A stretch of 64,000 bases of DNA from Bacteroidota bacterium (GTDB lineage: Bacteria > Bacteroidota > Bacteroidia > Palsa-948), in assembly GCA_016213435.1 (NCBI GenBank), contig JACRAL010000098.1, positions 141 through 64,140 of the forward strand, read 5' to 3'. Both the position numbers and the translations under genes were made by a program. The notes below the pieces were generated by a model that saw nothing but the letters and a program-made list of their open reading frames with translations, had not been told where the DNA came from and made no database searches. The first letter of the stretch is position 1; every line of letters begins with the position of its first letter. This document shows positions 2,710 to 23,789 of this stretch, piece by piece.

Positions 2710-2721
2710 AACCTTAAATAA

Positions 2722-3179: not shown

Positions 3180-3265
3180 AACTTTAAACACTTTCATCTC
3201 CCCGCCCGATTAAACCTTTCATAGCTTTTAGCAATGCTTTTCAAAACGTGAATTGCTCGATTTAT
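3180..3265. repeat. degenerate copy (about 85-88% over ~60 bp, weaker to ~85 bp) of the 3' end, stop codon included, of the 522-aa ATPase gene
   Basis: aactttaaacactttcatctccccgcccgattaaacctttcatagcttttagcaatgc matches 3741-3800 aactttaaaacactttcatctcccctccctgattaaacctgccatagcttttagcaatgc. Confidence 0.6.
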
Positions 3266-3740: not shown

Positions 3741-3826
3741 AACTTTAAAACACTTTCATCTCCCCTCCCTGATTAAACCTGCCATAGCTTTTAGCAATGC
3801 CATCCTGAACATGAATAACCACATCC
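3741..3826. repeat. authentic 3' end of the 522-aa ATPase gene; partner of repeat 3180-3265
   Basis: See 3180-3265. Confidence 0.6.
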
Positions 3827-5313
3827 ACCTCATGTTCTAAATCCCTGGATCCCTTATAACTTCCATCCTTAGTGGATTGAGCAATAACAATAATGCCGGT
3901 ACGAGGGTATTTTTCATGCAGCAAGTGAATATCATCCGCACTCATCCCGGCTTTGGTAATGGAATCAATGAAAACAAAATCATAGCCGGATAAATCCTCC
4001 TGAAGTGAATCGGTAAATGACAAATTCGGATGCGTTGCGCCCAGCCGGTTAATTTTTTCCTGCAAGGTGGCTCCAAAACCTTCCTCAATGGCTTCATAAA
4101 GGACTTTCCCGTGATGCTCGGCAAGATGTTTTGCAAATTCTATTGCCAGCGTGCTTTTTCCGCCTTTAGGATTGCCATATATCAGGATGCGGAAACCCAC
4201 CGCAGGATCACCGATAAGTTCTCTCCATTTTCCGTGCAGTGTCATGGTATCAAAATGAGCGTTGGCAAGTTCTTCTGAACCAAGTACCACTGTGCCGTTC
4301 AAACTGCCTCTGTGTTTAGAGCATCGTCCCGGCTTTCTGTGCGAATCGGAATACGTCCTATCAGTGCAACGGTCTAACTTTTTCCCTTTGGTATGGTAGA
4401 TAGCTCCGCAGGCAGCAAGCAATCCGTTGAGTTCTGCCTTTTCAATTTTCAATGCACCGGGTCTTGAGGTATGCAGGTAAGAAAATAGCCCTTTCTGTAC
4501 GAGCTGCAACTTGTCAAAATATTTATCATTCTCCGTTATTTTTTCTTTTTCAATAGAGGTTGTGATTTGGTCGTATAACTTTTTTACTTTTTCTTTTGTG
4601 GCTTTTCTGCCATCCATACCAACATAGCGTTTGATGTAGGCAATGGAAAGCATTGGCACTTCGCTTCCGGCAATTTCATGGAAGCGTTGCAGGGTGGACT
4701 GCTGAACGTCAAACTTTGCCTCATATTTTTTTTGCTGGATCATAGCGTTGTATGCCTTCACCAAGTTTTCCTGTATGCTCTCTATCTCCTGTGCGTAGGG
4801 AGAATCTTTTCGGATACGCCTTTCCAATATTGCTTTTTGCAGGGCATCAATGAAGCTCATAATCTGCTTATCGGTCTTCACTTTTCCGTCAAGGGCTGCA
4901 TAGCGTTTGATGAATTTAATTTCATCTTCTAACCGCTCCACAGGTTTTCCTGCCGGTGCAGTATCTTCCTCTGTGTGGGCAGGAATTTTACGAGATGCTT
5001 TAGCAGCTTGCTTTTCTCTTTTCACCGATTCTTTGGCTTCCCTTTTCGACTGAATGATTTCTTCCCTGCGCTGGGGACTTACCATTGGCTTTAAAGGTGT
5101 TTCTTTCTTGGGCTGTGTTTCAGCATACTCGTTGAGCTTTTGTAAATACAAATCAATCACTCGTTTTATCGTAGCGTTTGTATTGTATGTTTCCCAACTG
5201 CTACCATCCTGTGTAACCTTGCTGACAAGCTCATGGCTTTTCTTTAACGCTTCGGGTAAATTTTGTACACCGATGGTGTCAATGTTGCTGTAATAGTTCT
5301 GTGTGGTTATCAT
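3745..5313 (-). CDS. RecA-superfamily ATPase (RepA/DnaB-C-terminal-like, AAA_25-type) with Lys/Glu-rich N-terminal domain
   Basis: Walker A GNPKGGKSTLAIEF, Walker B DFVFIDSI, and RecA-fold layout in the C-terminal ~200 aa. Confidence 0.55.
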   Translation of the reverse strand: MITTQNYYSNIDTIGVQNLPEALKKSHELVSKVTQDGSSWETYNTNATIKRVIDLYLQKLNEYAETQPKKETPLKPMVSPQRREEIIQSKREAKESVKREKQAAKASRKIPAHTEEDTAPAGKPVERLEDEIKFIKRYAALDGKVKTDKQIMSFIDALQKAILERRIRKDSPYAQEIESIQENLVKAYNAMIQQKKYEAKFDVQQSTLQRFHEIAGSEVPMLSIAYIKRYVGMDGRKATKEKVKKLYDQITTSIEKEKITENDKYFDKLQLVQKGLFSYLHTSRPGALKIEKAELNGLLAACGAIYHTKGKKLDRCTDRTYSDSHRKPGRCSKHRGSLNGTVVLGSEELANAHFDTMTLHGKWRELIGDPAVGFRILIYGNPKGGKSTLAIEFAKHLAEHHGKVLYEAIEEGFGATLQEKINRLGATHPNLSFTDSLQEDLSGYDFVFIDSITKAGMSADDIHLLHEKYPRTGIIVIAQSTKDGSYKGSRDLEHEVDVVIHVQDGIAKSYGRFNQGGEMKVF

Positions 5314-5323
5314 TTTTTAAAGT

Positions 5324-6352
5324 TTAAAGGGTTAATAATTTCAGTTCTGTTTCAATAGCAAGAGCTTCTAATCGAAGTTCACTTTTGCTCATGGTTCCGC
5401 TTAATGAATGAGCAATTCGTTTGTTGGCAATTTTTATGTAAGCAGGTTTAAGTTCCAAACCGATAAAATTTCTGCCCAGCTTTTTAGCGACTACCGCAGT
5501 AGTGCCACTGCCCATGAACGGGTCCAACACGATTCCGTTTTTCGGGCAACCTGCTTTAATCGGTATGGTTATCAGTTCCTCCGGGAATACTGCAAAGTGA
5601 GCATCCTTAAATGGCTTGGTATTGATTTCCCAAACGGTGCGTTTGTTTCTGCCTTCAGCATTTCCGGCCACAAATGCGCTCTGCCTCGCACGAATCTTGT
5701 GTTCTCTTTTGTTGGCATTGCTTTTCCATTTACCATCGTATTCTTTTCGTCCTTTTCTCATCCGCTCCATATCATATTCGTTGCTCAAAAAATTCTCGTA
5801 TTGCTGCTCAAAGTGATACTGTTTTGACTTGGTGAAAAAAAATAAATATTCAAAGTCATTAGTAAATCTATCCCTCACACTTTCAGGCATGGCATTGGGC
5901 TTTTGCCATATAATCGTATTGCGTAATATCCAGCCCCGGTCTATCATGGCGAGAACAAAACGATATGGAATACCTATCAGGGACTTAGGGAATATCTTTG
6001 ATGCTAAAGGTTTTCCACTACTGGTAGGATAATATTTTTGTTTTACCACATTCTGAAAACCTGAACTGTTTTCGCTTTGTCCGTAACCGCAGTTGCTTCC
6101 ACCGTATGTATCACCCAAATTCACCCACACCGTTCCGGTAGTTTTCAGCACTCGTTTTACTTCATCAAAAATCAGCATGAGCTTATAGATGTACTGCTCA
6201 AATGTTTTTTCCAAACCGATTTGCCCTTTCACTCCATAATCACGCAAGCCCCAGTAAGGGGGAGAGGTTACAACACAATCTATGCTTTCGGCTTTCATGT
6301 TCTGCAATCCTTTTAAAGCATCCGTGTTATATATTTTGTTTACCTGTGTCAT
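5324..6352 (-). CDS. DNA methyltransferase, beta-class amino-MTase (N6-adenine or N4-cytosine), motif IV SPPY before motif I
   Basis: Motif IV VVTSPPYWGLRDYG near the N-terminus and motif I LDPFMGSGTTAVVA near the C-terminus. Its start codon overlaps the stop of the upstream 1715-aa gene (TAATG). Confidence 0.8.
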   Translation of the reverse strand: MTQVNKIYNTDALKGLQNMKAESIDCVVTSPPYWGLRDYGVKGQIGLEKTFEQYIYKLMLIFDEVKRVLKTTGTVWVNLGDTYGGSNCGYGQSENSSGFQNVVKQKYYPTSSGKPLASKIFPKSLIGIPYRFVLAMIDRGWILRNTIIWQKPNAMPESVRDRFTNDFEYLFFFTKSKQYHFEQQYENFLSNEYDMERMRKGRKEYDGKWKSNANKREHKIRARQSAFVAGNAEGRNKRTVWEINTKPFKDAHFAVFPEELITIPIKAGCPKNGIVLDPFMGSGTTAVVAKKLGRNFIGLELKPAYIKIANKRIAHSLSGTMSKSELRLEALAIETELKLLTL

Positions 6353-9300
6353 TATATTATTCCTTCGTCTGCAAATGAAAAATGTCCATCGGTTGTAATG
6401 ATTACATGATCTAAAACAGATATATCCATTACTTTCCCTGCCTCTTTTATTTGATGCGTAATTGCCTTGTCTTCTTCACTTGGTTTCAGGTTCCCGGAAG
6501 GGTGATTATGACAGAGGATAATAGAGCTTGCAAGCACATTGAGAGCTGCCGACATTATTAATCGCTTGTCCATAATGGTTGCATCAATGCCTCCCTCTGC
6601 TATCTTAAAATATCCCATCACATTGTTAGCTCTGTTGAGCAGCAGCATGAGCGCATGTTCCTTAACAGTTACTTGAGAACCGATTAACTGCCTGAAAATT
6701 TCAGCAGCATCTTTGGAATTAGTAATTTTTGTTTTATCACCTTTCTTTTTAGCATAGAGCATACGCACCTTTGGAGGGCGCCTTAAATTTTCAGGAACTC
6801 CATAAATTTGGTCGGCTTTCATCGGATAGGGCGTAAGCTCCCCGAATCCCGCTACCTGTGCATACTCGTTTAGGTCGAGCAGTTCAAGTTCGATTTCCAA
6901 TGCAGCAGCTTCCAATTCAAATTCGCTGACATGGGCAGACGGAGATTGTTTTATTATTTTAATTTTTGGCAGTTTTCGTATATTCTTTTTCTGAACTTCA
7001 TTTTTTATGATGTCAAACTGTGGCTGGGTAAGGGTAACGCTTGCGCTTAACTTTTCCTGAATCAGATTAACAATCTTATCAATCGTGCGAACATCAAAGG
7101 TGGCTACCATTTTATCGGCAGTTTTTTCAAAGAGGTTATTGTCCACTAAATCCAAAATATCTTCATCGAGGTAAACCTCTCCGCCCTTTTGCCTTGAAGC
7201 CGGTACAATGATTTTAAAATTGTCGCTCTGACGGATGAATGAAATACCATTGTTTGCATATATGGAGTTTCCGATAGCAATGGACTTGATGACCTTCAGG
7301 GCTTTGCCAATGGGTACAATAATTTTCCCTTTCAGGTTTTCATCGGGCTGCCAGTTGTCCGGCATGAGAATCCCCTTTTGGGTTTCTCCGGAGTTTGTTG
7401 TATAGCTTACGAGCTTGCCTTTAAAATCAGCAAACGCCTGTAAAAGATTTCCTGTGATGATGTGCCTGATTTTCCGGTCGGTAATATTTTCTTTGGTGAT
7501 AACATCCCATTGGCTTAGTAAATCTTCCCTATCAGGTTGTTCTATCGTAGTGCTGGCTCCTATGATAGCAGTGATGTCATTGGAATAGCTTGCAGGGATA
7601 GCTATGTATTTGTTGCTGCTTGCCAGTGCAAGGCGCAGCTTCATGGCGCTGGGAGCATAAGGGTTTTTCTTTTTCTTGTCAATCACAAACCCTAAGAAAA
7701 CAGACATGATTAATTCTTGTCCCCCTTCATAACTCTGTATCGGATAATTTACACGCCTTCCGCAGTAGAAAAATTTTAATACCCGAATGATATACTCTTT
7801 GCGGTTAGAAAATGTTTTTTCACTTTGGATATTTTGAGCTTCCTGTGCTGCCTTCAATTCTTTTTCACGTTCCCTTATTGTAAATTCATAAGTGGGAGAA
7901 CCTTGCAACTTTTGAATTTTCTTTTCGTTGGGAATGTTTTTTATCAGCTCTGCATATTTTTTATTGTTCTCCTGTATTTCCTGCTTCAGCTTACCGGCAA
8001 CAAATAGTTCGTATTCGGAGATAATTTCTGTTTGCTGTGTCAAATGGTCTTTGTTTTCCAATCCCTCCACAATCAGGTTTTCAAGCTCTGGTTTGGTAAA
8101 AGGTTTTTTCAGCACGTTTGCCCTGACTGTTTCCAATACGCTGTCATCCCCGAACTCGCTTTCTCCGCCCTTGCCCACTTTAATTATGTTCTGACTGATA
8201 GTTTCAGCTTCGAGGTTCATAGCTTCCACCTCCAGGTCATACTCACCGATTTGTTTCAGGTACTCTGTATAATCGGTATATCGCTCTGCTATTTCATTAT
8301 AGAAGTCCTGTTGCATCTTTGTTGAAAGAACTGCCACACGCCCGGAAACTTTGTGAGCTGCATCTTCGGTAGTATCTCCGTCCTCATTGCTTGTATCGGT
8401 TAATTTTAAAGGGTCATTCAGGATTAAATTGATTTCAGGATTTTCTTTCAGGTATTCCACGACCATTTTATCTCCGTACTTATTCAAAAAATCCGGCACG
8501 TCCAATATTTTGGTGCTTTGCTTTTGGTTAGAAGTAGTGTTAGCATCCAATGATTTCAGTTTCTTTTGTAACATCATCATTAATCGCTTCTCCGCAGGGA
8601 TAGCAGAGTTTACATAGTCATAAATTGGTTTCAGAATTTGTCCTGTGCGGTTAATCCTGCCACGTTTCTGTACTTCGGTATTGATATTCAGCTCTGCTTG
8701 CAATACAATCATTACTCTTTGCTTTACTTCACTTGCAGGAACTTTACTTGTAACAATAGCATGTGCCGATGCGCCTGTACTGCCCGATTGGTTTATCATC
8801 AGCACATCCACCTCGTTGTTGTTGAACTCACGAAACGCATCATTGGTATTGATTCTTTTCCGGGAGACGACCAATCCCTGACTATTTTTAGGATTAATCT
8901 GCACCTCAAATTTTCTTCCTGTTACTTCATTGACGGTATAACCTGCCTTCTGTATTTTATGAATGATAACATCAATCGGTGAAATAGTTATGCCACTGGA
9001 AACTGTTTTTATTTTTTCGCTTATCCGAAAGAATTCTGCCTGTGCTTCAGGAGCTAATTCAGACACTTCAAACTTTTTGTAAACCTTGCTTCCGTCCGGT
9101 GCCGTTTCAGTATATCGTAATATTCCATCTAATCCTTTCTGTAATACTTCGGTAAAATCTGTATTGATAACTGAACCGTTCTGCACAGGCAATCCGTTTG
9201 TATCTTCCATGTCCTCAATAAAACTTCCCATAGTGCTGGCAAAGGCAATGATTGGCTTTTTCCCTTCTTTCAATCTGCCAATAGCTCTCTGGGCAACCGC

Positions 9301-11499
9301 ATCCGCTTTGATGCTGAATAGCATTTGATTGATAACATTAAATACTTTGGAGAAATAAGGTTGATTGGAAACACCTGCTTCCGATGTTCCTTCACGTACA
9401 TCCACTCGTTTGCCTTCGGCAACTGCAATGCTGTCTAAATCTTCTATCTCCTCATCCACATGCTTTTTTTGAAAGCCGATAATATCCCGGAGTATATCGG
9501 TAATGTTATCGGCAATGGCTTTGTGTTCCTGCTCTTTATTGTCAAGGGTAATGTAATTGACTTCGATGCCTTCAAAAGAGCGTTCACGCCTTATCATTTG
9601 CCCTTCCTTCACTAACTGACTTGAAAGAACCTCCTGCAATGCAACGCCTCCTTTTGTAATAGCTTCCACTAATTCGTCTTTGGTCATGTTCGCATCGCTC
9701 ATAGCTGTTTTCATGGCATAGACAGGCATGTTATCGGGACGTTTGGCAAAAGTGGCGGAGAGGAATACAACGCCTTTTGTTACCGCTAATACGGACTGTA
9801 AAAATTCCCCTGTATTGCTTGAACCACTTGCATTATGGCTTTCATCCATGATAATTATGTTACCGTCTGCAATAGCTTTTAAGAAGCTCGGCTTTTCAGG
9901 TTTCCTTTCAGGGGAATTGAATTGTGAATAGGTAGCGAGTACAAATTGAAACTTAGCCGGAACTTTTTTGTCTTTGAAAATCCTGTTTTGTTCTGTGGTA
10001 GCCATCGCCTGATAAAGTATGTCGCCATTCTCATCTTTAATATCCGTTTTGCTATCTCTTGAATTGACGATAAAAGGAACAAAGTGGTTGGACCCGATTG
10101 CAGCTAAATCCCGGTAGATGTCGGAAAACAGGTTGGCTTTTTCAGTCAGAAAAATTGGTTTATGTCCCTGTAACACTCCGTAGCGGATGATGGAAGCTGC
10201 AATACGCCCTTTGCCGATACCCGTCTGATCGCCAATAATCATTCCCTGCCCTTTTGCTTCTATGTTATAGATAGCCATTGCCACCGCATCTATTTGTTCG
10301 GCAGAAAGGGATTTGCATAACTCCACGCTTGAACGGTAGCCCAAACGCTGCCTTACAAACTCATCTACATCACCGCCAACAGCTTCTTTTACCAAGCTCG
10401 TTGCTGTGTGTGTTTCAAAGTCCATCGAATCGGGAACTTGTGTATCGAGTACGACACAACTTTCGGAAGCAGGTTGATAAGGAGCATCCAAGCCACCGAG
10501 TAATTGCAGTTCTATCTCTAATGCTTCAGCTTCAATATCAACAGGTAATTTTTTCATGGTATTGTCATTTATATTTTCAATTACTCTTTCATATAAATCC
10601 TCAAAAGTTTTTACAACTACATCATGGTCTTGCTTTTTTGCAGGGGCAGCTCCCTGTGGTGTATTTTTTCTTCCCTCAATTAAAATCAGGCGTACATCAA
10701 AGGCAGTTCCTTGTCTTGAATAAAGTTTTTGTCCGTCAATATTGATAACGTCCGCCACCCAGTAGTGGCTGTACAGGTAATTGAAAAAGAGAATATTTTT
10801 TCCCGCTTGTATTCTGCCTTTCTCGTCCCAATTCGTATGACCGCCAATGATAATGGCTGCCCTGCCATCGTCTTTCATGGTGTCGAGTGTTCGTAAAGCC
10901 ATTAGATGATCCAATACTTTAATGGGATAGGTCTCGTACATCACCGGCTTATCCAATACTCCGAAAGGAGGATTGGTTATAACAGCATCGAATTTTTTCC
11001 GAAAAGAAATAAAGGGCTGTGTGGCATCCTGCTTTAATACTTTTGAAAAATTCTGTGTTTCCAAATTTCCCCTGCGGAAAGTATCTATTTCATTGACGAT
11101 TACATTTTCGGGATGAGCTGCAATGGTCAAAAGTCCGTTGCCGGCAGAGGGTTCAAATACCGAAACACCTTTATCGGCATTTACAAACACTCCTGCTAAA
11201 TATGCGATGGGCGCAGGGGTGCTGTATTGCTGCAAAAGAATACTTTGACTTGTACGATGAGAAAGATTGACTTGATTGGTGTATAAATCAACAATCTTTT
11301 TAAAACGGTCTCTGACCGTTTCAGGCAGGTGAGCGATTGCTCTTGCCCTGTGAACAATGGCAAGCTCGGTGAGTTCCTTTACTTCTGTTTTGCTCGTGAT
11401 TCCGTAGGTAGCCGCAATTTTTTCAATGGACGTTTTATTATGCTTTGTTTTAGCGAGCAATTCATTTTCTATCCTCTCTACAAACAGGAACTTGTCCAT
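6352..11499 (-). CDS. multidomain N6-adenine DNA methyltransferase (gamma-class) / SF2 helicase / RadC-like JAB domain protein; DarB-like anti-restriction candidate
   Basis: N-terminal motif I FEPSAGNGLL then motif IV ITNPPFGV. Helicase motifs IIGDQTGIGKGR (I), IIMDESH (II, DEAH-like) and QKRGRINRTGQ (VI). C-terminal ILCHNHPSGNLKPSEEDKAIT is the RadC/JAB signature. Confidence 0.8.
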   Translation of the reverse strand: MDKFLFVERIENELLAKTKHNKTSIEKIAATYGITSKTEVKELTELAIVHRARAIAHLPETVRDRFKKIVDLYTNQVNLSHRTSQSILLQQYSTPAPIAYLAGVFVNADKGVSVFEPSAGNGLLTIAAHPENVIVNEIDTFRRGNLETQNFSKVLKQDATQPFISFRKKFDAVITNPPFGVLDKPVMYETYPIKVLDHLMALRTLDTMKDDGRAAIIIGGHTNWDEKGRIQAGKNILFFNYLYSHYWVADVINIDGQKLYSRQGTAFDVRLILIEGRKNTPQGAAPAKKQDHDVVVKTFEDLYERVIENINDNTMKKLPVDIEAEALEIELQLLGGLDAPYQPASESCVVLDTQVPDSMDFETHTATSLVKEAVGGDVDEFVRQRLGYRSSVELCKSLSAEQIDAVAMAIYNIEAKGQGMIIGDQTGIGKGRIAASIIRYGVLQGHKPIFLTEKANLFSDIYRDLAAIGSNHFVPFIVNSRDSKTDIKDENGDILYQAMATTEQNRIFKDKKVPAKFQFVLATYSQFNSPERKPEKPSFLKAIADGNIIIMDESHNASGSSNTGEFLQSVLAVTKGVVFLSATFAKRPDNMPVYAMKTAMSDANMTKDELVEAITKGGVALQEVLSSQLVKEGQMIRRERSFEGIEVNYITLDNKEQEHKAIADNITDILRDIIGFQKKHVDEEIEDLDSIAVAEGKRVDVREGTSEAGVSNQPYFSKVFNVINQMLFSIKADAVAQRAIGRLKEGKKPIIAFASTMGSFIEDMEDTNGLPVQNGSVINTDFTEVLQKGLDGILRYTETAPDGSKVYKKFEVSELAPEAQAEFFRISEKIKTVSSGITISPIDVIIHKIQKAGYTVNEVTGRKFEVQINPKNSQGLVVSRKRINTNDAFREFNNNEVDVLMINQSGSTGASAHAIVTSKVPASEVKQRVMIVLQAELNINTEVQKRGRINRTGQILKPIYDYVNSAIPAEKRLMMMLQKKLKSLDANTTSNQKQSTKILDVPDFLNKYGDKMVVEYLKENPEINLILNDPLKLTDTSNEDGDTTEDAAHKVSGRVAVLSTKMQQDFYNEIAERYTDYTEYLKQIGEYDLEVEAMNLEAETISQNIIKVGKGGESEFGDDSVLETVRANVLKKPFTKPELENLIVEGLENKDHLTQQTEIISEYELFVAGKLKQEIQENNKKYAELIKNIPNEKKIQKLQGSPTYEFTIREREKELKAAQEAQNIQSEKTFSNRKEYIIRVLKFFYCGRRVNYPIQSYEGGQELIMSVFLGFVIDKKKKNPYAPSAMKLRLALASSNKYIAIPASYSNDITAIIGASTTIEQPDREDLLSQWDVITKENITDRKIRHIITGNLLQAFADFKGKLVSYTTNSGETQKGILMPDNWQPDENLKGKIIVPIGKALKVIKSIAIGNSIYANNGISFIRQSDNFKIIVPASRQKGGEVYLDEDILDLVDNNLFEKTADKMVATFDVRTIDKIVNLIQEKLSASVTLTQPQFDIIKNEVQKKNIRKLPKIKIIKQSPSAHVSEFELEAAALEIELELLDLNEYAQVAGFGELTPYPMKADQIYGVPENLRRPPKVRMLYAKKKGDKTKITNSKDAAEIFRQLIGSQVTVKEHALMLLLNRANNVMGYFKIAEGGIDATIMDKRLIMSAALNVLASSIILCHNHPSGNLKPSEEDKAITHQIKEAGKVMDISVLDHVIITTDGHFSFADEGII

Positions 11500-11514
11500 T
11501 GATTTTCATTTTTA

Positions 11515-12063: not shown

Positions 12064-12080
12064 TGCTTTTATTTTATAGG

Positions 12081-13631: not shown

Positions 13632-13656
13632 GGTTGTATGTGTTTAGAATTAATAA

Positions 13657-14226: not shown

Positions 14227-14295
14227 AGGGTTAAAAATTATTCTTTAAAAATTTTATTATCTCTTTTCGTTTTGCATACGCAATTCCTGTGAGTG

Positions 14296-15983: not shown

Positions 15984-16147
15984 TTCTTAGCAGTTTGAAT
16001 GAGTCCCGGTTTTTCTTTCACCTTTTTAGCAAACAATAAAAGGTCTTCATGCGACATGGATTTTTTCAGATCAATCATTGCCTGTATTGCTTCCCTTGCT
16101 TTTTCACTCGTGGGAGCATCAATCTTTACATTGAATGTGAACTCCAT
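15974..16147 (-). CDS. small hypothetical protein (about 57 aa), not in the ORF track (below 60 aa)
   Basis: ORF MEFTFNVKIDAPTSEKAREAIQAMIDLKKSMSHEDLLLFAKKVKEKPGLIQTAKKWL fills the only gap in the gene array. Its stop overlaps the next start (ATGGCTGTAA). Confidence 0.3.
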   Translation of the reverse strand: MEFTFNVKIDAPTSEKAREAIQAMIDLKKSMSHEDLLLFAKKVKEKPGLIQTAKKWL

Positions 16148-16149
16148 TT

Positions 16150-17295: not shown

Positions 17296-17612
17296 AAAAG
17301 TTCCGGGACAACTTTCATAAACTGAATATCTATGGGTGCTGCCGGCTGACTTATTTCTATAAGCCCTGAAAATTCCTGTATGCTGTAATAAGTGAAGTCA
17401 GGAAAATTAGCTGCCTCGTTGAATATGTTGGTATCGGATGCTATCACTAAGCCCACAGGAACAGTTTTGCTTATCAGATAATAGTATTCGTTGTATGCTT
17501 CTACCATTGCTTTGCTCGCATTGATAAAAATTCTCACCGGCTCGAAATGAAATGTTTTATATCCCATTTCACTGAGGCGTTGAGTGATGTATGCTATTAA
17601 AAAGTCATCCAT
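17271..17612 (-). CDS. hypothetical protein
   Basis: 113-aa ORF. Confidence 0.35.
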   Translation of the reverse strand: MDDFLIAYITQRLSEMGYKTFHFEPVRIFINASKAMVEAYNEYYYLISKTVPVGLVIASDTNIFNEAANFPDFTYYSIQEFSGLIEISQPAAPIDIQFMKVVPELFCQPTNTN

Positions 17613-18114
17613 TGTTGATTTTGTTATCCGTTGTGTTTGTCGTGCAGTCCAAATAAATCCGAATTTTATAAGGAAATGATACTGCCGATGCTAAGTCCTC
17701 GTAATAGCCCTGTACGTATGAACCTGCTTCAATTTCTTCCTCCAGCTTCAGTGTTTCGTATTTCCTTCGGAGAAAATCCAATGGTTTTGATTCCACGATG
17801 TAATTAAGCGGTTGGGACTTTCGGTTATTGATAAACAAGCTCACTCTGCCCAGCACATAATTTTTTGCACTGCTGCCTTCCACGTTGCCGGAAAAAATAA
17901 ATCCTTTACAGCGTTTTATGTTGGCAGGGAGTTTGTATGTGATTTTCTTCACACTGCCTGAAGCAATGTTGTCAATCAGGATAAGCCCCCATTTTTTACG
18001 CTCATGCTTTTGCATCGTCCTGCCTGTTTTCAAGTCGTAAATAAATTCTCGCATTATAAGGATAGGCGGTAGCATTGCCCGCATCCTGAAAACTTCCTGA
18101 TACAGTTGAACCAT
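17605..18114 (-). CDS. hypothetical protein (true start probably the internal Met near 18015)
   Basis: 169-aa ORF. Overlaps the upstream ORF by 113 nt unless an internal start is used. Confidence 0.35.
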   Translation of the reverse strand: MVQLYQEVFRMRAMLPPILIMREFIYDLKTGRTMQKHERKKWGLILIDNIASGSVKKITYKLPANIKRCKGFIFSGNVEGSSAKNYVLGRVSLFINNRKSQPLNYIVESKPLDFLRRKYETLKLEEEIEAGSYVQGYYEDLASAVSFPYKIRIYLDCTTNTTDNKINNG

Positions 18115-18388
18115 CGGCTCGCTCCTCTATGTCATCATAGAAGCGTTTGTTAGGAGAAACTTCCTGCCCAGTTTGAATGAGTTTTACCTCAAATCCATCG
18201 GGGAATATTTCGTTGGAATCAATCTCGAATTTTGTAAAGACAGCATCTTTCAGGGCTGCTGTATCCGTGCCGGAATACTGTAACCCGGTAACTTTCTTGT
18301 ATGCTTTGTCTGTTTCCGCACTGATAGGAAAGTTTCCTGCCCCGGTTATGGTCAGCTTAATAATCTGATATTTAATTGGTCTCCGCAT
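18002..18388 (-). CDS. hypothetical protein
   Basis: 128-aa ORF. Confidence 0.35.
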   Translation of the reverse strand: MRRPIKYQIIKLTITGAGNFPISAETDKAYKKVTGLQYSGTDTAALKDAVFTKFEIDSNEIFPDGFEVKLIQTGQEVSPNKRFYDDIEERADGSTVSGSFQDAGNATAYPYNARIYLRLENRQDDAKA

Positions 18389-18463
18389 TGGCTTTATGTT
18401 AAAAGGTTAATGAACAAAACGTAGGGGCTTCTCATTTTGTGATCCACCCCTTCGTTTGTATTC

Positions 18464-19171
18464 TTAGTAAGGAGCCACTGAAGACCCTATCAAAATAGCT
18501 TTCAGCCATGTGTTCGCAGCCGGAGCTACTGCAAAGTCAAGGTTAAACTCAAGACCTTGTTCCGCTTCCACAAGTTTGGGATTCTCCAACCTGAAAAGTC
18601 CTTTGCGGATGTCTGTCCTGCCTCCGGTGTCAAATGCTTCGTTGGAAACACGGGCTGCCGGAGTGATGGCTTTTCCTCCGTTGATTTTGAGTTCAAAATC
18701 TCCGTTGCGGATTTCGTGAGGTATCACATCAAAGGTTACGTCCTCTTTGAGTGGTGCGATACCTGCCAAAAGAACTACCCCGCTTAACAGGAAGTGATTG
18801 TCTTTTTCGAGTTTCTGCTTGCTCACGTTGCCAAGTCCCGGAGCTTTGTTGTCGCTGTCGGTAATCATCTTCACGGTTTTGAAGCCACCGGCAGATTTCA
18901 CGAAATAAAATTCGCTGTCCACCATTTGCAGCCTCTTATCTAACAATCCTTTTTGGATGTCGGCAGGCAGCATGGCTGCTTTGCGTAAAAATTCCGTCCT
19001 GGAGTTTTGTTTCAACGCCACAGGAACACGCTTGTTCCACATTTTTTTCATTGCCATTGCTTTGCGGTCAGGAGGCAGTGCGTTGATAGCGCCAAGCAAT
19101 TCGTTGGTTGTTTCCACTGACAAGGCTCCGAGATCGAAGTCCTCACTGTCTAATACTTTGTTTAAGTCCAT
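18464..19171 (-). CDS. hypothetical protein
   Basis: 235-aa ORF. Confidence 0.4.
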   Translation of the reverse strand: MDLNKVLDSEDFDLGALSVETTNELLGAINALPPDRKAMAMKKMWNKRVPVALKQNSRTEFLRKAAMLPADIQKGLLDKRLQMVDSEFYFVKSAGGFKTVKMITDSDNKAPGLGNVSKQKLEKDNHFLLSGVVLLAGIAPLKEDVTFDVIPHEIRNGDFELKINGGKAITPAARVSNEAFDTGGRTDIRKGLFRLENPKLVEAEQGLEFNLDFAVAPAANTWLKAILIGSSVAPY

Positions 19172-19227
19172 TGTTTTTAGTTTTTAAGGGTTAATAATTG
19201 TTTTGGTTTTTTGATTTGATTTTTGGT

Positions 19228-19803
19228 TTATAATATTTCAGCATATTCCACATTCAGCCCTGAAATTTCTGATTCACTTTCTGTATCAACTGCTGAAATT
19301 GGTGTTGAAACAGGAGTGTTTATATTTTCAGGCAAGGCAGGTCGGAACGAATTGTCCTGCAATAGTTTCATAATTTCGTCTTTCGCTTCCCGGTAGTATT
19401 TGGCTTCCAAGGGTCGGTTTTCACTGTCTCCTGCCTCGCCAAGCCCTTCAAAGAGGTCTTTTTTCAGCAGCTTGGCACCGCTGATAACTCCTGAACCAGC
19501 AAAGCCATAGCCGAAACTTTTCACGAAATCATTTTTTCTTCCGAAGTAGATAATGGTGCCTCCGGCTCCGAGCTGCGCTAAGGGTTTGACGATTGTCTTC
19601 CACTGGAATTTGTCAGGGTTGGCAGCATCGGGGGTAACAGGAAGGAATTTATCTACGGCTTTGCCCGCCATGTTTCCTACCCATATTCCCGCTACAATCA
19701 AAAGAGGTTTGCTGCTTTCGCTTAATACTTTTTTTCCTGCCTCTTTTGCTTTTTCAATTCCGCTAAGTCCTTTGGACTTGCATTTTGTTTGTTTATTAGC
19801 CAT
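19228..19803 (-). CDS. hypothetical protein
   Basis: 191-aa ORF with a hydrophobic N-terminal segment. Confidence 0.4.
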   Translation of the reverse strand: MANKQTKCKSKGLSGIEKAKEAGKKVLSESSKPLLIVAGIWVGNMAGKAVDKFLPVTPDAANPDKFQWKTIVKPLAQLGAGGTIIYFGRKNDFVKSFGYGFAGSGVISGAKLLKKDLFEGLGEAGDSENRPLEAKYYREAKDEIMKLLQDNSFRPALPENINTPVSTPISAVDTESESEISGLNVEYAEIL

Positions 19804-19843
19804 TGTTATTTGATTTTTTTAGGTTAATAGATTTGTGATAGTT

Positions 19844-21664
19844 TTAGTTTAGATTCATTATTGGAATCGGGTTACGTTTTGGCTTTCTGTGTTTCCTTTT
19901 CGGAACAGCGCCTAATCCCACAGCTTTTCTTGCTTTTGGCGATACTGCCAGTGCGATAGCTGTTCCTATCACAGCAATACCGATAGCTGTTTTTCCCGGA
20001 TTCTCTTTCACGAATGAGCCAACCTTGCTTATAAATCCTTCGCCTTCGGGTTTATCATTTCCTTTATCATCACCGGATTCTGCATCACCGGATTCTGCCT
20101 TTTCATCAGGGGCTTTTTCCGCATCACTCACCGTTTCGGGAGCAAGCGCAGTTTCTTTTCCGAAAGATTTTTTCCACCATTCTTTGATTTTCTGAATGAA
20201 ACCTTTTTCATCGGCAGGAGTATCTTCGCCTTTTTCAGTCAGTCCTGCGCTCTTTATTTCTCCTGCTACTTTGATGAGTGGCGCTGCGGATGCTACAACC
20301 GTTGCAATGGTGGCTGGTTCTCCCAATTCTCCAAAACCTTTGAACTGCTTTGCAGCTCTGCCATTCATAATGGCTTTTTTCATGTTCTCGGCTTTGCCCT
20401 GAAGGGTACCCACAAAAAGTTTTTCAACTTTCGCCAATGCGTTTTTAGCCCTTTGCCATTTGTCGGTAGTGATTCCCCTTGTCTTCGCTTCGGATTCAGA
20501 GAGGTAAGCGGGATAGAGTTTTTTTGCGAAGCCCAGTAAGTTAATTTTCATGGCAAGCAGAAAACCGCCACGTACAGCAAGGGTCAAAGGATTGTATCTG
20601 ACTATTGCTTTAACTGCTTTTTTCGCAACTTCTCCTACTTTCTGCCCTACCTTTTTCACTCCCTGCCCGACTTTCTTCACCGCTTCCTTTATATTTTTAA
20701 AAAATTTCTTGCGGGCTTTGATAGCTCCAAGTCCGTTGATTTCACCATCATCGTCATCCTCTCCGTCAAGTCCACTCACGCCATTGTGCTGATTCCATCG
20801 TTCTTCTTCCTGCTCCAAAATTTCCAATGCCTTATCCCTGCCCGGAGTGTTCCAGTTGTCAATGGCATAGTTGAGCATCTGCAAATGAGCTGCTGCACCT
20901 CCTGACGTAAGGACTGATTTGGGATTTTCCATGATGTAATCCCTTGTCCGCACCAAGTGGTTGTAAATTGCTCTTAGCTCTTGTTCATCGGAAGGAATTT
21001 TGCCCATTCCTTCGAGGTAGTCAATCTCTGCGAAATCAACTCCTGTTAAAATGCCATACAGTTCTTCGTCCTGGATCGGATCCGGTCCGGACAGAACTGC
21101 TATCGGTAGTCCGTTTAGTGTTGTCATGTTGTATTCAAATTTTTCGGTGTATGGTTTTTCATAATTGAACTCGTCCACTACGCAATCCATGAGGTAATGA
21201 CTGCCCTGTGATTTGGGAACTGCCACGTACACATGCTGCCAGTCGCCTTCGTATTTGGTTATTCTGAACTTGTGAGGTATGCCGAGATTGGCAAGTATGG
21301 AACTGATAAAAATGGAATAGCAGTCGCAGTCCACGCCTGATATTCTATCGTACCATGACCTTGCAGGTCTGCGGAGTTGTTCTAATCCTTTCTGATCGAG
21401 CTTGTATTGAATGTGGTCGTAAACAAAATCCCAGATGTTCCGGCAGGTCTGCTCAAGATTTTTTCCTTTCAGTTTTGGTGCAATCAGTTTGGTATCGTCA
21501 ATGTATTTATTCACTACATCAGCCATGAGGTGAACGGTGTCTTTCACGTTACCATCCCGGATAACAACATCGTCCTGCATTTTGGCAACAGGAAACAGGT
21601 GATCGTATTCCAAACCACTTTGGATATTTCTTCTTTTGGTTGCTATGAGACCGAGTGTATTCAT
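19844..21664 (-). CDS. transglutaminase-like cysteine-protease-fold domain protein with Lys/Ala-rich repeat region and C-terminal TM segment
   Basis: GVDCDCYSIFISSILANLGIPHKFRITKYEGDWQHVYV...YLMDCV fits the Cys-His-Asp transglutaminase-like core. C-terminal KKVGQGVKKVGQKVGEVAKKAVKAI repeats, then a TM helix and a basic tail. Confidence 0.45.
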   Translation of the reverse strand: MNTLGLIATKRRNIQSGLEYDHLFPVAKMQDDVVIRDGNVKDTVHLMADVVNKYIDDTKLIAPKLKGKNLEQTCRNIWDFVYDHIQYKLDQKGLEQLRRPARSWYDRISGVDCDCYSIFISSILANLGIPHKFRITKYEGDWQHVYVAVPKSQGSHYLMDCVVDEFNYEKPYTEKFEYNMTTLNGLPIAVLSGPDPIQDEELYGILTGVDFAEIDYLEGMGKIPSDEQELRAIYNHLVRTRDYIMENPKSVLTSGGAAAHLQMLNYAIDNWNTPGRDKALEILEQEEERWNQHNGVSGLDGEDDDDGEINGLGAIKARKKFFKNIKEAVKKVGQGVKKVGQKVGEVAKKAVKAIVRYNPLTLAVRGGFLLAMKINLLGFAKKLYPAYLSESEAKTRGITTDKWQRAKNALAKVEKLFVGTLQGKAENMKKAIMNGRAAKQFKGFGELGEPATIATVVASAAPLIKVAGEIKSAGLTEKGEDTPADEKGFIQKIKEWWKKSFGKETALAPETVSDAEKAPDEKAESGDAESGDDKGNDKPEGEGFISKVGSFVKENPGKTAIGIAVIGTAIALAVSPKARKAVGLGAVPKRKHRKPKRNPIPIMNLN

Positions 21665-22212
21665 ATCATTACTTCCTCCGTAAAAGTTTTGTTGATGTCA
21701 TTCCCGCTGGTGATGACTTCTATTTTCAATTTTCTGCTTGGCTTCTTTCCTGCAAAGCGGGAAGCGAGGTATTTGATAAAGTCAGGCATGACCGGCAAAA
21801 CAGCATTGGCATAGAACACTACGTCCACATCGCTGATAAAAGAAGCGTCTTTCGCTTTGAGCGTAATTTTTTTATCGGAGGGCGTGGAGGTTCCTATGAG
21901 CTTGTTGTTATAGTAAACTTTCAGGTAGGGCTGTGAAACAATAAGGTCTTTGTCGGTAGGATTATCGGCTTTTATGTCTGCCTTGAAAACTACTTTCGGA
22001 ATAGCAAGCCCCAGCCCTTTTAATCCCTGTGATTTAAGGTCGAATCGGTCAATATGAAAATTGAGAGCATCGGCAGTAGCGGAAGTGCTTAAAAGCCGTG
22101 TAAGACCATAAATGCCTGCTGCGGATAAACCGCCAACTATTAATATGGTTCCTGCCTTACTCATCTTTTTTGTTCCTTTTACTTTTGATTTTATGCAGCA
22201 TCCAGTCTCCAA
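21661..22212 (-). CDS. hypothetical membrane-anchored protein
   Basis: 183 aa with N-terminal TM segment. Confidence 0.4.
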   Translation of the reverse strand: METGCCIKSKVKGTKKMSKAGTILIVGGLSAAGIYGLTRLLSTSATADALNFHIDRFDLKSQGLKGLGLAIPKVVFKADIKADNPTDKDLIVSQPYLKVYYNNKLIGTSTPSDKKITLKAKDASFISDVDVVFYANAVLPVMPDFIKYLASRFAGKKPSRKLKIEVITSGNDINKTFTEEVMI

Positions 22213-22381
22213 AAACCTTTACCGCCAGCATAATTGCACCGCCTATGAGCGAGTGAATTGTAAAATCAAACAGTTCACTTGTGCGGATATTCAGCAGAGC
22301 TTGTATGTTAGTTATGTAGTGGGTCATGGCTCCGATGAATCCACCGATAAATGCCAAAAAATTATTTGTACTTCCGTTCAT
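22157..22381 (-). CDS. small two-TM protein (holin-like candidate)
   Basis: 74 aa, two hydrophobic helices and a charged C-terminus KSKRNKKDE. Overlaps neighbouring ORFs, so gene status is uncertain. Confidence 0.25.
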   Translation of the reverse strand: MNGSTNNFLAFIGGFIGAMTHYITNIQALLNIRTSELFDFTIHSLIGGAIMLAVKVFGDWMLHKIKSKRNKKDE

Positions 22382-22405
22382 TTTTTTCTGAGATTAGAAA
22401 AATCG

Positions 22406-22648
22406 TTACAGAGGTTGAGTTTCGGAAGTTGGTTCATCAGGTGAAACAACAGGTTCAACAGGTTGTTCCAATACAACCGGAGCATCGAGGATTTCCCATT
22501 GAAGCGTATTTAAGTCGTATGGAGTACCTCTCTTTATAATGGTTTGTTTTACCGGGTCAATCGTGCCTTCGACAAGAAGTTCAGGCAGTGGGAAGGTCTT
22601 GCGCTCGTTTGAGCCGACTTCTTTGATACTTGCGTTTATGATTTTCAT
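22406..22648 (-). CDS. hypothetical protein
   Basis: 80-aa ORF. Confidence 0.35.
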   Translation of the reverse strand: MKIINASIKEVGSNERKTFPLPELLVEGTIDPVKQTIIKRGTPYDLNTLQWEILDAPVVLEQPVEPVVSPDEPTSETQPL

Positions 22649-22799
22649 GTTCCGAAATTTTTAATTGATGTTTAAAAATGTTTTCGGGACAAAGGTGAGC
22701 AGGGCTGATGAGTAGATTTTGAAAAGGGTGGAGGGTAATGGATACTTAATGACAGATGACGATAAAGGGAGATAAAAGAAGATTACAGTGGACAGCTAT

Positions 22800-23039
22800 T
22801 TATTTTTTCCTTGAGGGAGAAGTGTTGCGGATATAGGAGATAATTTCAGAAAAGTTTAATCCCTCGTAATCGCAGTATTCTTTTATCGTGAGCTTTCTTT
22901 TATCCGCAGCAAGACAATCACGAATAGCTTTATGCGACTTTGCAGTGCTTTTGTAGGAATCACTGCCGGTGAGCTGCATGAGGTCTTTTATTGTGAGATA
23001 TATTCCGCCTTCCATCTGGTAATCAAAAAAAGTTTGCAA
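22800..23039 (-). CDS. small HTH DNA-binding protein (AlpA/excisionase-like fold candidate)
   Basis: 79 aa. LTIKDLMQLTG and TIKEYCDYEGLNFSEIISYIR resemble a two-helix HTH_17-type unit. Divergent from the next gene. Confidence 0.4.
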   Translation of the reverse strand: MQTFFDYQMEGGIYLTIKDLMQLTGSDSYKSTAKSHKAIRDCLAADKRKLTIKEYCDYEGLNFSEIISYIRNTSPSRKK

Positions 23040-23082
23040 CTTTACAGTATTAATATTTTATCAATGGGAAGAAATTCCGTTT

Positions 23083-23298
23083 ATGCCAATTATGGCTAAA
23101 ATTGACATTAATAGAATATGTATCTACTCTAAAGACATTGAAAGAATTACAGGCAGGAAAGGGCGTACAGCAAGAAAGTTGCTAAATGAAATTCGGAAGA
23201 AATTGGGAAAAGCAAAAAACGATTTTGTTACTGTTACAGAGTTTTGCGACCATACCGGATTGAATGAAGAAGAAGTACGAATGTTTCTGATTGATTAA
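23083..23298 (+). CDS. HTH_17/AlpA-Xis-like DNA-binding protein
   Basis: 71 aa. ICIYSKDIERITGRKGRTARKLLNEIRK...FVTVTEFCDHTGLNEEEV is typical of phage excisionase/AlpA-like regulators. Confidence 0.5.
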   Translation: MPIMAKIDINRICIYSKDIERITGRKGRTARKLLNEIRKKLGKAKNDFVTVTEFCDHTGLNEEEVRMFLID

Positions 23299-23789
23299 CC
23301 ACCCCAAAATCTTTAGCCAACCAAATACTTTCCTTCCGGCATAAATTTTGATTTGTTTTGATTTTATTTGTATTGGTTTCAGAATATTTTTTACATTTGC
23401 ATAACGATATTTGTTCTTTTAAATAGAATGTCATTTACATAGTATTCGGTTACCAATTCGGTTACCAAAACTATTGCAAATAGGTAAAACTATTGATATT
23501 CAAACGATTATAAAAACGATCTCGCTCCCAGCGGGATCACAGGTTGCAAAACCAAACAACTATAAAACCGTTTGATTGTCTATGACATCAGGCGGTTTTT
23601 TGTTTTTATACTCTCCAAACAAAATCAAGAAATCGCATGGAATAGGTTGCCAATTGTATTGCATGGTGAAAATGTTCAACAAAGAACATTGATTTCAAAC
23701 CTCTGAAAATATTTTTTTGACTAATTATGTTTGTATCGTTTTTTTTTACATTTGAGTAGTTATTAGAGATGCCTGTAAGTAATGGAGGG

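Follow-up and report, generated by a model that had tools for sequence, protein, structure and literature searches.

We analysed a 64,000-nucleotide (nt) stretch of DNA from a Bacteroidota bacterium (GTDB lineage Bacteria; Bacteroidota; Bacteroidia; Palsa-948), taken from NCBI GenBank assembly GCA_016213435.1, contig JACRAL010000098.1, positions 141 to 64,140 of the forward strand. This whole stretch is called the window, and positions are counted from its first letter. Towards its left end lies an uninterrupted run of 20 minus-strand genes (3745-22979), far from what chance would give, and beyond it one divergent plus-strand gene (23083-23298). Distances between the 20 genes range from -14 to +151 nt, with overlaps at 7 junctions, and 97.7% of the run is coding. 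All 20 open reading frames (ORFs) are intact; their starts were refined by means of the gene calls of an identical public contig of 14.8 kb (L017; loci are numbered in this way throughout). Comparison of composition with the flanks showed that this arm has a higher GC content (41.6%) and GC content at third codon positions (GC3, 0.43) than the right-hand host DNA (37.9% and 0.36). An original prediction, made from the letters alone, had described a packed co-directional block of 24 minus-strand genes at 3745-23300; the packing and the common orientation were real, with 20 genes instead of 24. On balance, we favour the interpretation that this block is the late arm, with virion, lysis and anti-defence genes, of an integrated temperate tail-less virus that has an internal membrane and belongs to a new lineage in Bacteroidota.

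Profile searches with Pfam and PHROGs gave no match to integrase, terminase, portal, HK97 capsid or tail families, nor to tube or sheath families, on any ORF of the block, in agreement with the prediction that no integrase, terminase, portal or capsid gene would be recognisable. Between 17271 and 22648, there was no PHROG or significant Pfam match, except for a borderline DUF553 match on a 606-aa protein, and NCBIfam matched none of ten small or unknown proteins of the block. The earlier description of the genes as ORFans holds only in part: the 522-aa ATPase protein described below has more than 1000 full-length homologs (count >1077, 40-47% identity), and the profile of a 128-aa jelly-roll family found 392 clusters (50% identity) among 1.84 billion representatives. 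In a word-indexed search, this 128-aa protein had 58 homologs and its 235-aa neighbour had 25.

Three adjacent genes within this region are candidates for capsid genes:
18464-19171, minus strand: 235-aa protein, predicted to have a helical N-terminal region (residues 1-77) and an 8-stranded jelly-roll; candidate vertex/penton or capsid protein.
18002-18388, minus strand: 128-aa protein, predicted compact single jelly-roll; candidate major capsid protein A.
17605-18015, minus strand: 136-aa protein, paralog of the adjacent 128-aa protein; candidate major capsid protein B.

The AlphaFold model of the 235-aa protein, built from an alignment of homologs, had a predicted local distance difference test score (pLDDT) of 75.8 and a predicted template modelling score (pTM) of 0.65. 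Its top Foldseek matches in the Protein Data Bank (PDB) were jelly-roll proteins of viruses, namely the FLiP penton, the coat proteins of brome mosaic virus and cowpea chlorotic mottle virus (CCMV), SPV1 (probability 0.99), P23-77 VP17 and SH1. The model of the 128-aa protein (pLDDT 87.7, pTM 0.78) matched the cement protein of phage Pam1, the coat proteins of CCMV and cucumber mosaic virus and SPV1 capsid proteins; both SPV1 capsid proteins and the cement protein of phage KHP30 were among the PDB matches of the jelly-roll models, which were mostly viral jelly-roll proteins. Against BFVD, the same model found only uncharacterised phage proteins, with a best E value of 3.6e-5. Paralogy of the 128- and 136-aa proteins was evident from BLASTP cross-matches and from hhalign (99.9%, E 5e-35), with 24% identity in alignment A2. 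A distant homolog of 269 aa (P0297) is a head-to-tail fusion of two small jelly-roll units, residues 1-130 and 142-262, both significant against the profile, and this natural two-unit fusion fits with the 128- and 136-aa proteins acting as a pair. By eye, no obvious signal peptide was seen at the start of the jelly-roll proteins. No Pfam or PHROG capsid match was obtained, including to double jelly-roll families, and both modelled proteins are predicted single jelly-rolls; a search of the PDB by sequence, run with the A1 profile and the 516- and 606-aa proteins, returned nothing useful. The models thus support the jelly-roll fold class of the 235- and 128-aa proteins, for which a capsid role is a candidate role only. 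The prediction had singled out three ORFs in which capsid, portal or terminase folds might be hidden. A jelly-roll was indeed predicted for 18464-19171, and also for its two neighbours, which had not been singled out. The other two were rejected as capsid proteins: the product of 16150-17295 is an acidic coiled-coil protein and that of 19844-21664 is transglutaminase-like and a homolog of a virion protein of phage SSIP-1.

Three further proteins of the block connect it to this phage:
3745-5313, minus strand: 522-aa protein, encoded by the final gene of the operon; RecA/RadA-like ATPase domain at residues ~345-510.
19844-21664, minus strand: 606-aa protein with an N-terminal transglutaminase-like Cys/His domain, amphipathic helices, a C-terminal transmembrane (TM) segment and a basic tail.
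6352-11499, minus strand: 1715-aa polyvalent protein with N6-adenine methyltransferase, Strawberry-notch/SNF2 helicase and RadC(JAB) parts.

[quoted passage not shown] The C-terminal part of the 522-aa protein matched AAA_24 (1.9e-8), phrog_6891 (6.6e-31) and RadA in PDB (1.5e-3), which corroborated the RecA-fold ATPase that had been recognised by eye. The domain aligned with SSIP-1 gp40 (31% over 177 aa, E 5e-20, pairwise), which itself matches AAA_25/KaiC/AAA_24 and shares the Pfam families AAA_24 and AAA_25 with the window ATPase. gp40 is a virion protein and the predicted packaging ATPase of SSIP-1 (PMC4124505). The ATPase had been counted among replication genes; a virion or packaging ATPase of the gp40 type appears more likely. 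It was rejected as an FtsK/HerA motor, being RecA/RadA-like; it is the sole Walker-A protein of the block, sits at the end of the operon, and no FtsK/HerA-type ATPase gene lies beside the capsid candidates. Among related loci, the domain was matched in L001, L006, L007, L009, L015 and L016 and not in the incomplete loci L005 and L012; in L001, L006, L007, L009 and L015, it forms the C-terminal part of a RadC-LPD1 protein.

The 606-aa protein matched DUF553 just below the Pfam cut-off (4.8e-4), and its homolog, SSIP-1 gp34, itself matches Transglut_core and agrees with the window protein in Pfam families; gp34 thus corroborated the transglutaminase-like assignment of the prediction. The two proteins aligned by BLASTP (27% over 128 aa, E 2e-12) and by hhalign (97.3%, E 1.6e-11), with the DCD and HVYV motifs kept. 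The 606-aa protein is conserved in 8/8 relatives compared, including the most distant ones, L012 and L016, and also in plasmid pPP10 (see below). The methyltransferase segment of the 1715-aa protein matched gp43 (2319 aa) with 26% identity over 92 aa (E 7e-5 against the SSIP-1 proteome), and only that segment aligned; in their multidomain make-up the two proteins are analogous. All three of gp34, gp40 and gp43 are annotated as structural proteins of the SSIP-1 virion (NC_017983). SSIP-1 was the only deposited tail-less phage with any similarity; other phage records matched only through the ATPase domain. The relationship to SSIP-1 is, as judged from these alignments, distant and based on non-capsid virion proteins. 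In SSIP-1 itself, gp45 and gp46 (L021 34635-35959) are adjacent paralogs (26% over 175 aa, E 8e-11). We did not find this paralogy stated in the literature searched, and the two are good candidates for the two capsid protein types.

The module was present in related loci in a conserved order: a small membrane protein, a ~167-aa anchored protein, the ~610-aa transglutaminase-like protein, then proteins of ~200 and ~235 aa, the ~125- and ~130-aa pair, proteins of ~110 and ~365 aa, the 57-aa protein, a ~350-aa protein, the lysin, variable genes and finally the polyvalent protein and the ATPase. Where protein identity is 76-93%, relatives are organised in the same way as the window. The flanks of the module are unrelated to each other: PPDK and a cation ATPase in L005, a PAS kinase in L001, tRNA-Arg and DPPIV in L006 and nrdD in L020. 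The element in L006 is complete: it measures 16.95 kb, is bounded by 20-bp direct repeats (3230-3249 and 20163-20182) and has a tyrosine integrase and an S24 CI-like repressor. Its attachment-site (att) repeat falls within the D-arm, in the 5' half of tRNA-Arg(CCT). Directly behind the repressor gene, the element brings a substitute 5' half that has its own promoter-like sequence, and the displaced 5' half, anticodon loop included, stays beside the integrase. Most tRNA-targeting elements use the tRNA 3' end, and the 5'-half target of L006 is thus unusual.

In the cultured bacterium Persicobacter psychrovividus NBRC 101262, the module occurs, in unchanged order, on pPP10 (NZ_AP025302.1; L022/L023), a circular plasmid of 53 kb that carries ParA, ParB and two Rep genes; the homolog of the 235-aa protein there (284 aa) matched with an E value of 3e-30, the homolog of the 128-aa protein has 159 aa, and the 1715-aa protein is 49-54% identical to pPP10 genes. 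A second copy, on the 1.07-Mb replicon pPP1 of the same strain (NZ_AP025293.1, L152, ~417.8-432.3 kb), is disrupted, apparently by a large opposite-strand ORF. Other parts are exchanged between members. The lysin slot holds an SLT protein in some, and L001, L012 and L020 have a glucosaminidase there instead. L007 and L009 carry an S24 CI/LexA-type repressor and a Lin1244_N replisome-organiser protein, L015 a VapE-like primase-helicase and L012 a ParB (ParB_N); the closest relatives of the window, like the window itself, have no S24 repressor at the regulatory end. Such modular swapping of lysin and replication genes is the pattern expected of temperate viruses or phage-plasmids. One relative is a viral contig of IMG/VR. 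Since the same gene order occurs in unrelated flanks, on a ParAB/Rep plasmid and between att repeats beside an integrase, the module is mobile, with relatives integrated by a tyrosine integrase or kept as a ParAB/Rep plasmid. These findings support the earlier proposal of a prophage, phage-plasmid or novel non-tailed element whose structural genes escaped recognition. The window copy is chromosomal and not a plasmid, and pPP10 would count as a phage-plasmid only if the module is viral. In the literature searched, we found no description of SSIP-1 relatives or of this module in Bacteroidota, and the 235-, 128- and 606-aa proteins had no tblastn match in 50,697 GenBank phage records.

The borders of the element were then placed with the help of these relatives, using the following features:
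23527-23541, plus strand: 3' end of a tRNA-Lys(UUU) gene at the right border, made of the T-stem 3' strand, the acceptor 3' strand and the discriminator (CCCAGCGGGATCA), then CA.
23445-23468, plus strand: perfect tandem repeat of the 12-bp unit TTCGGTTACCAA (two copies), non-coding, ~60 nt inside the att remnant.
3341-3727, plus strand: DUF7793 gene (PF25056, 4.5e-19), convergent with the ATPase gene and first gene of a second arm.
183-3194, plus strand: variable cargo cassette (by Pfam an ArsR regulator, two unknown genes, a SAM methyltransferase, DsrE and a heavy-metal-binding protein), GC content 35.4%.
33-182, plus strand: resumed homology with L018 (85% identity to L018 4333-4481, a stretch that in L018 directly precedes the YhcG, primase-helicase, HTH_17 and RteC genes).

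Nucleotide homology between the window and L005 (77% identity) runs through the non-coding region and ends exactly at 23541, and the tRNA 3' end is present in both at that point. L005 retains a perfect 20-mer, GATTCGAATCCCAGCGGGATCA, of which the window keeps CCCAGCGGGATCA, with the T-loop part (23518-23526) degenerated. According to ARAGORN, this 20-mer is the 3' end of tRNA-Lys(TTT) in 15/18 loci; in the remaining 3, no tRNA was called over it. A displaced tRNA 3' fragment that points away from an element is a classic mark of tRNA-gene integration, and a rebuilt tRNA is expected at the other end. We therefore read 23527-23541 as the att remnant of an element inserted at a tRNA-Lys gene. The fragment is the sole copy in the window: neither an intact tRNA-Lys nor a second core copy was found there, and Rfam on the whole window gave only a tRNA-His, at 31424, which was rejected as att partner, its sequence being unrelated. 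No empty tRNA-Lys/RuvX site was found among 128 loci carrying the tRNA-Lys 3' end. One locus, L061, has two tRNA-Lys(UUU) genes 8 kb apart (563-636 and 8579-8652), which may bracket another island at the same target. The tandem repeat inside the border is a possible recombinase (arm) site or repressor/operator site; at the same position, L005 has a different tandem 12-mer, GCTAACCGAATT, also in two copies. Outside the border, a terminator-like hairpin is followed by the RuvX, def and prolyl-oligopeptidase genes. Further into the host part, and unrelated to the element, 36408-38747 encodes a 779-aa ThiF and nitroreductase-like protein beside sensor kinases.

The edges originally proposed, 3745 and 23300, had to be moved on both sides. 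A first sign that 3745 is no element end was that direct or inverted repeats between these borders were only chance 10-12-mers; on the right, the homology with L005 and the tRNA-Lys fragment put the end at 23541. On the left, homology with L018 continues: the ATPase protein of L018 is 93% identical, its DUF7793 ortholog is 91% identical and in the same position, and the DNA is 90% identical through DUF7793 down to window position 3195. In place of the 183-3194 cassette, L018 has two unrelated genes with homologous sequence on both sides, and the cargo slot of L019 holds a protein sorted by the type IX secretion system (T9SS) and a Schlafen/AlbA-type gene; the cassette thus appears to be exchangeable cargo between the two arms. 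The resumed homology with L018 at 33-182 suggests that the element, or at any rate the synteny that the two share, runs past the start of the window. In L018 and L019, the second arm goes on with a Toprim and AAA_25 primase-helicase, HTH_17 and RteC (2e-85); the YhcG nuclease is on the second arm of L018 only, L019 having its Schlafen/AlbA-type gene there. Thus, the left end lies beyond 3745 and probably past the window start, the block being one arm of a larger element, and the far end, with integrase and intact tRNA-Lys, would probably lie to the left of the window. Neither L018 nor L019 contained an intact tRNA-Lys or a second att copy. L019 and L005 share a sample, and the tRNA-side flank of L005 differs from that of the window; if the two are one element, the second arm would travel with the element and not with the host. 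Upstream of RteC, both L018 (9671-12218, 1746 aa) and L019 (12618-14447) encode a very large protein, the L019 fragment of which has a weak, below-cut-off match to a T9SS sorting domain. The intergenic stretch between RteC and this protein is conserved between L018 and L019; the large protein may be element cargo or part of a shared insertion neighbourhood.

The other genes of the arm include further candidates for structural proteins:
22157-22381, minus strand: 74-aa membrane protein with one clear hydrophobic segment and a charged tail, in six relatives; candidate virion-membrane protein or holin.
21661-22164, minus strand: 167-aa protein with an N-terminal TM anchor, in seven relatives; gene call from L017.
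19228-19803, minus strand: 191-aa glycine-rich hydrophobic protein, in eight relatives (seven at a stricter coverage filter), no family match; candidate membrane-associated structural protein.
17271-17612, minus strand: 113-aa acidic protein, conserved core gene in seven relatives, no family match.
16150-17259, minus strand: 369-aa acidic coiled-coil protein; candidate scaffold, tape-measure or cementing protein.
15974-16147, minus strand: 57-aa helical protein; a protein of 57-60 aa lies at this position in all relatives (L001, L005-L009, L012, L017, L020).
14961-15983, minus strand: 340-aa protein with one annexin repeat (residues 58-130) and a C-terminus rich in beta structure; candidate for a lipid-binding connection of the membrane to the shell.
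13657-14226, minus strand: 189-aa variable protein, found only in L001 (78%), no family match; candidate spike or adaptor.
12081-13631, minus strand: 516-aa variable protein, found only in L001 (53%) and as a short match in L016; candidate receptor-binding spike.

The matches of the 369-aa protein, which has homologs in seven relatives and L020, were all of the coiled-coil type (CCDC22; phrog_4704, a tape measure, 1.6e-5). Annexin repeats are rare in bacteria. The one in the 340-aa protein, which had been noticed by eye, is a true repeat (Pfam Annexin 6.3e-7; 2.3e-17 against annexin VI) and is found in six relatives and L020; the N-terminal hydrophobic stretch of this protein, seen by eye, was not flagged by the TM scan. 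For two of these genes, the earlier labels could not be upheld: the supposed beta-helix protein at 12081-13631 had no family or PDB sequence match, and the supposed holin at 22157-22381 can only be described as a small membrane protein.

Lysis, anti-restriction and putative regulatory genes complete the arm:
23083-23298, plus strand: 71-aa basic protein, divergent, with an 87% identical ortholog in the same place in L005; putative regulator.
22800-23039, minus strand: 79-aa basic protein (59 aa if the start is at 22979), encoded at the head of the long operon, with orthologs in both L005 and L015; putative regulator.
22406-22648, minus strand: 80-aa acidic protein (isoelectric point 4.4), orthologs in L005, L001 and L015.
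14296-14964, minus strand: 222-aa lytic transglycosylase (SLT, 7.3e-6), presumably for lysis or entry.
11515-12063, minus strand: 182-aa permuted-papain hydrolase (C92, YiiX-like), ortholog in L015.
5324-6352, minus strand: 342-aa N4/N6 DNA methyltransferase (N6_N4_Mtase, 6.9e-55; phrog_67, 7.2e-74).

The divergent 71- and 79-aa proteins, taken earlier for a pair of helix-turn-helix (HTH) proteins, are paralogs of each other (31% over 54 aa), with no HTH or other significant family match. The SLT transglycosylase was confirmed by its Pfam match. For the permuted-papain hydrolase, phrog_1128 (7.5e-10) was corroborating, the Peptidase_C92 match (1.3e-4) staying below the Pfam cut-off. The two predicted methyltransferases were both recovered, one as the 342-aa enzyme, the counterpart of which in L015 is fused into the RadC-LPD1-ATPase protein, and the other as part of the 1715-aa protein. 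The latter matched RadC (5.2e-37), AAA_34 (3.4e-23), Helicase_C_4 (8.4e-20) and phrog_14770 (9.8e-73), with a weak Eco57I-like methyltransferase match (0.0085). DarB of phage P1 is a comparable methyltransferase-helicase protein. With several conflict-related domains, including the methyltransferase-helicase dyad, the 1715-aa protein has the make-up of the polyvalent proteins defined by Iyer et al. 2017, which are thought to enter a new host with the DNA and to counter restriction (PMC5512222). By analogy, it is a probable co-delivered anti-restriction factor.

From the gene content, we infer that this arm serves to form virions. The 128- and 136-aa paralogs would pair into pseudo-hexameric capsomers, like the two capsid proteins of SSIP-1 or P23-77, and the 235-aa jelly-roll protein may form the vertices or anchor the shell. 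An internal lipid vesicle would be populated or organised by the small membrane proteins, by the protein with the annexin repeat and by the transglutaminase-like protein with its C-terminal anchor, and the variable 189- and 516-aa proteins are putative host-recognition spikes. The SLT and C92 enzymes could open the cell wall at entry or exit, and the gp40-like RecA-fold ATPase may package the genome or be packaged with it. The 1715-aa protein and the solo methyltransferase would shield the incoming DNA from restriction, as proposed for polyvalent proteins (PMC5512222). The divergent 71- and 79-aa paralogs, together with the 12-bp tandem repeat beside the att remnant, could form a switch region, and replication and regulation (primase-helicase, HTH_17, RteC), presumably with the integrase and the intact tRNA-Lys, would be located on the convergent second arm that starts at DUF7793.

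Several observations weigh against this viral interpretation. The fold matches were weak, with E values of at least 1.2e-3 and TM scores of at most 0.46 for the 235-aa protein, and E values of at least 3.7e-3 and TM scores of 0.4-0.54 for the 128-aa protein; the jelly-roll is a generic fold, found in lectins, in cement proteins and in further non-capsid proteins as well. With hhalign and hmmsearch, the 235- and 128/136-aa families gave nothing significant against all SSIP-1 proteins, including gp44-48. The ATPase is RecA/RadA-like and not of the FtsK/HerA type found in known jelly-roll viruses, and in most relatives it is joined to RadC-LPD1, an odd feature in a packaging motor. Its tailed-phage homologs are annotated as helicase, ATPase or RadA-type "ATP-dependent serine protease", one of them beside a MuB-like transposase, which points to a replication or recombination function rather than to packaging. 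Neither an integrase nor an S24 repressor, a replication protein or a second att copy was found anywhere in the window, so that this copy could be incomplete.

Further points speak for a non-viral integrative element or plasmid, resembling an integrative mobilizable or conjugative element (IME/ICE), which would move by an unknown or helper-dependent route, with the polyvalent protein and the ATPase co-transferred and the jelly-roll and membrane proteins building some other envelope or surface structure. Iyer et al. found Bacteroidetes polyvalent proteins with RadC and SMS/RadA domains mainly in conjugative elements and plasmids (PMC5512222). The RteC, HTH_17 and Toprim/AAA_25 primase-helicase genes on the second arm of the close relatives are typical of Bacteroidota integrative elements, and one relative is a ParAB/Rep plasmid. 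Moreover, the module is nearly absent from virus-prediction collections: in IMG/VR, alignment A1 found one viral contig with the module (38% identical), and scans with single proteins and with alignment A2 found nothing. However, no relaxase, coupling protein, VirB4/TraG or other Tra or type IV secretion system (T4SS) family was found in the window or in the related loci examined, and homologs of the three shared proteins are physically present in SSIP-1 virions. Exchangeable lysins, an S24 CI-like repressor and a replisome-organiser domain of phage type occur in relatives, and the apparent lack of signal peptides on the three jelly-roll proteins fits a capsid better than a surface structure. 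We therefore consider a non-viral element unlikely.

Somewhat less probable still is that the window copy is a defective or domesticated virus remnant, fixed after loss of its integrase, repressor and replication genes and maybe kept for its methyltransferases and cargo. The genes missing from the window and the degenerated T-loop part of the tRNA-Lys fragment, compared with L005, would agree with such decay. However, 20/20 ORFs are intact and tightly packed, the relatives with 76-93% protein identity carry the missing functions on the convergent arm that starts at DUF7793 and would here lie to the left of the window, and the lack of an S24 repressor in the closest relatives too makes it a trait of the subgroup and not a sign of decay. 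A fragment of an ordinary tailed prophage with its head and tail genes elsewhere, to which the match of the SLT protein to the lysin domain of baseplate-hub/tail-lysin PHROGs (up to 2.3e-32) and the likeness of the 128-aa model to tailed-phage cement proteins might point, or a plain chromosomal locus for an adhesin or a polysaccharide, conflicts with the data and is hardly tenable: L006 is complete at 16.95 kb between att repeats, with no room for head and tail genes, no ORF matched an HK97 capsid, portal, terminase, tube or sheath family, the flanks differ between genomes instead of showing conserved synteny without mobility, profile searches made no polysaccharide or adhesin assignment, and the block has no glycosyltransferase or export genes.

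We would go further only tentatively, the following combination as a whole being possible rather than probable: that a large, unrecognised lineage of temperate tail-less viruses exists in Bacteroidota, in which two jelly-roll paralogs of ~125-135 aa would make the shell, a RecA/RadA-fold ATPase would replace the FtsK/HerA type, RadC and SMS/RadA polyvalent proteins would be virion cargo and the 269-aa fusion would be a present-day example of the transition between single and double jelly-roll capsid proteins. Phages that contain a membrane and lack a tail are poorly sampled, and virus detection based on markers largely misses them. If the viral interpretation is true, a whole lineage that lives as prophages and plasmids in Bacteroidota of the environment has passed as "hypothetical" or as DNA of conjugative elements, and SSIP-1, an orphan since 2012, gains relatives. 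The tiny paralogous jelly-roll capsid candidates and their fused form would bear on the origin of double jelly-roll capsids, a non-canonical packaging ATPase would be suggested, and the origin of one class of polyvalent anti-restriction proteins would be reassigned. The cultured carrier, P. psychrovividus NBRC 101262 with pPP10, offers an experimental handle that makes the viral interpretation directly testable.

Among known systems, the Caudoviricetes (tailed prophages) differ in that the block has no HK97-fold capsid, portal or large terminase gene and the complete relative L006 measures only 16.95 kb. With CTnDOT-type integrative elements of Bacteroidota, the closest relatives share RteC, HTH_17 and the Toprim and AAA_25 primase-helicase on the second arm, as well as tRNA insertion. 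In contrast to these elements, there are no Tra/T4SS, relaxase or mobilisation genes and the other arm is a virion-like module; RteC and HTH_17 occur only in relatives, the more distant of which swap this backbone for a CI-like repressor and Lin1244_N or for VapE. The likeness to the polyvalent proteins of Iyer et al. 2017 concerns the methyltransferase-helicase dyad and RadC of the 1715-aa protein, and in relatives the RadC-LPD1 (with methyltransferase in some) and RadA/Sms-type ATPase parts; in that study, RadC and SMS/RadA were seen in conjugative elements and plasmids (PMC5512222), whereas here they stand at the end of a virion-like operon without conjugation genes.

FLiP and PhiCjT23 (Finnlakeviridae) and the PM2-like and autolykivirus double jelly-roll prophages are tail-less, lipid-containing and associated with Bacteroidota or aquatic bacteria, some of them temperate and poorly detected by standard tools. 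The FLiP penton was the top PDB match of the 235-aa model, but a poor one (TM 0.2-0.3), and the capsid protein of these viruses is a double jelly-roll, encoded in genomes of 7-10 kb, which are single-stranded DNA in FLiP and PhiCjT23. Unlike in the double jelly-roll viruses PRD1, PM2 and FLiP, no double jelly-roll was found here, although one relative has the fused two-unit protein. There are also parallels with the vertical single jelly-roll viruses that have two capsid proteins, such as P23-77 and IN93 of Thermus, the haloarchaeal SH1 and HHIV-2 and other Sphaerolipoviridae and relatives: two small genes for capsid-type jelly-rolls, predicted ones here, are neighbours, an internal membrane is implied here by the many small membrane proteins, and the size is similar (16-30 kb). 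IN93 and SNJ1 have temperate or plasmid lifestyles, and P23-77 VP17 and SH1 were among the fold matches of the 235-aa model, at a weak E of ~1e-2. In these viruses, however, the FtsK/HerA (A32-like) packaging ATPase gene adjoins the capsid genes, whereas here a RecA/RadA-like one lies at the far end of the operon, and the two proteins here are clear sequence paralogs.

SSIP-1 differs from the element in the size of the putative capsid proteins (210/211 aa, against 128/136 aa here), in gene order, in genome length (44 kb, against 17 kb for an L006-type element) and in that the hosts here are non-halophilic. The ATPase here is extended at its N-terminus by ~340 aa, and in relatives it is joined to RadC-LPD1; the signs of an internal membrane are indirect (small membrane proteins and an annexin repeat). 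On the other hand, homologs of gp34, gp40 and the methyltransferase part of gp43 are encoded in the element, adjacent paralogous small structural genes are found in both (gp45/gp46 and the 128/136-aa pair), both have hosts of Bacteroidota lineage, and SSIP-1 also encodes an integrase and a regulator. The kind of virus, tail-less, with a membrane and small jelly-roll capsid proteins, is thus a known one, and the lineage would be new in its sequence, gene set, ATPase type and host range.

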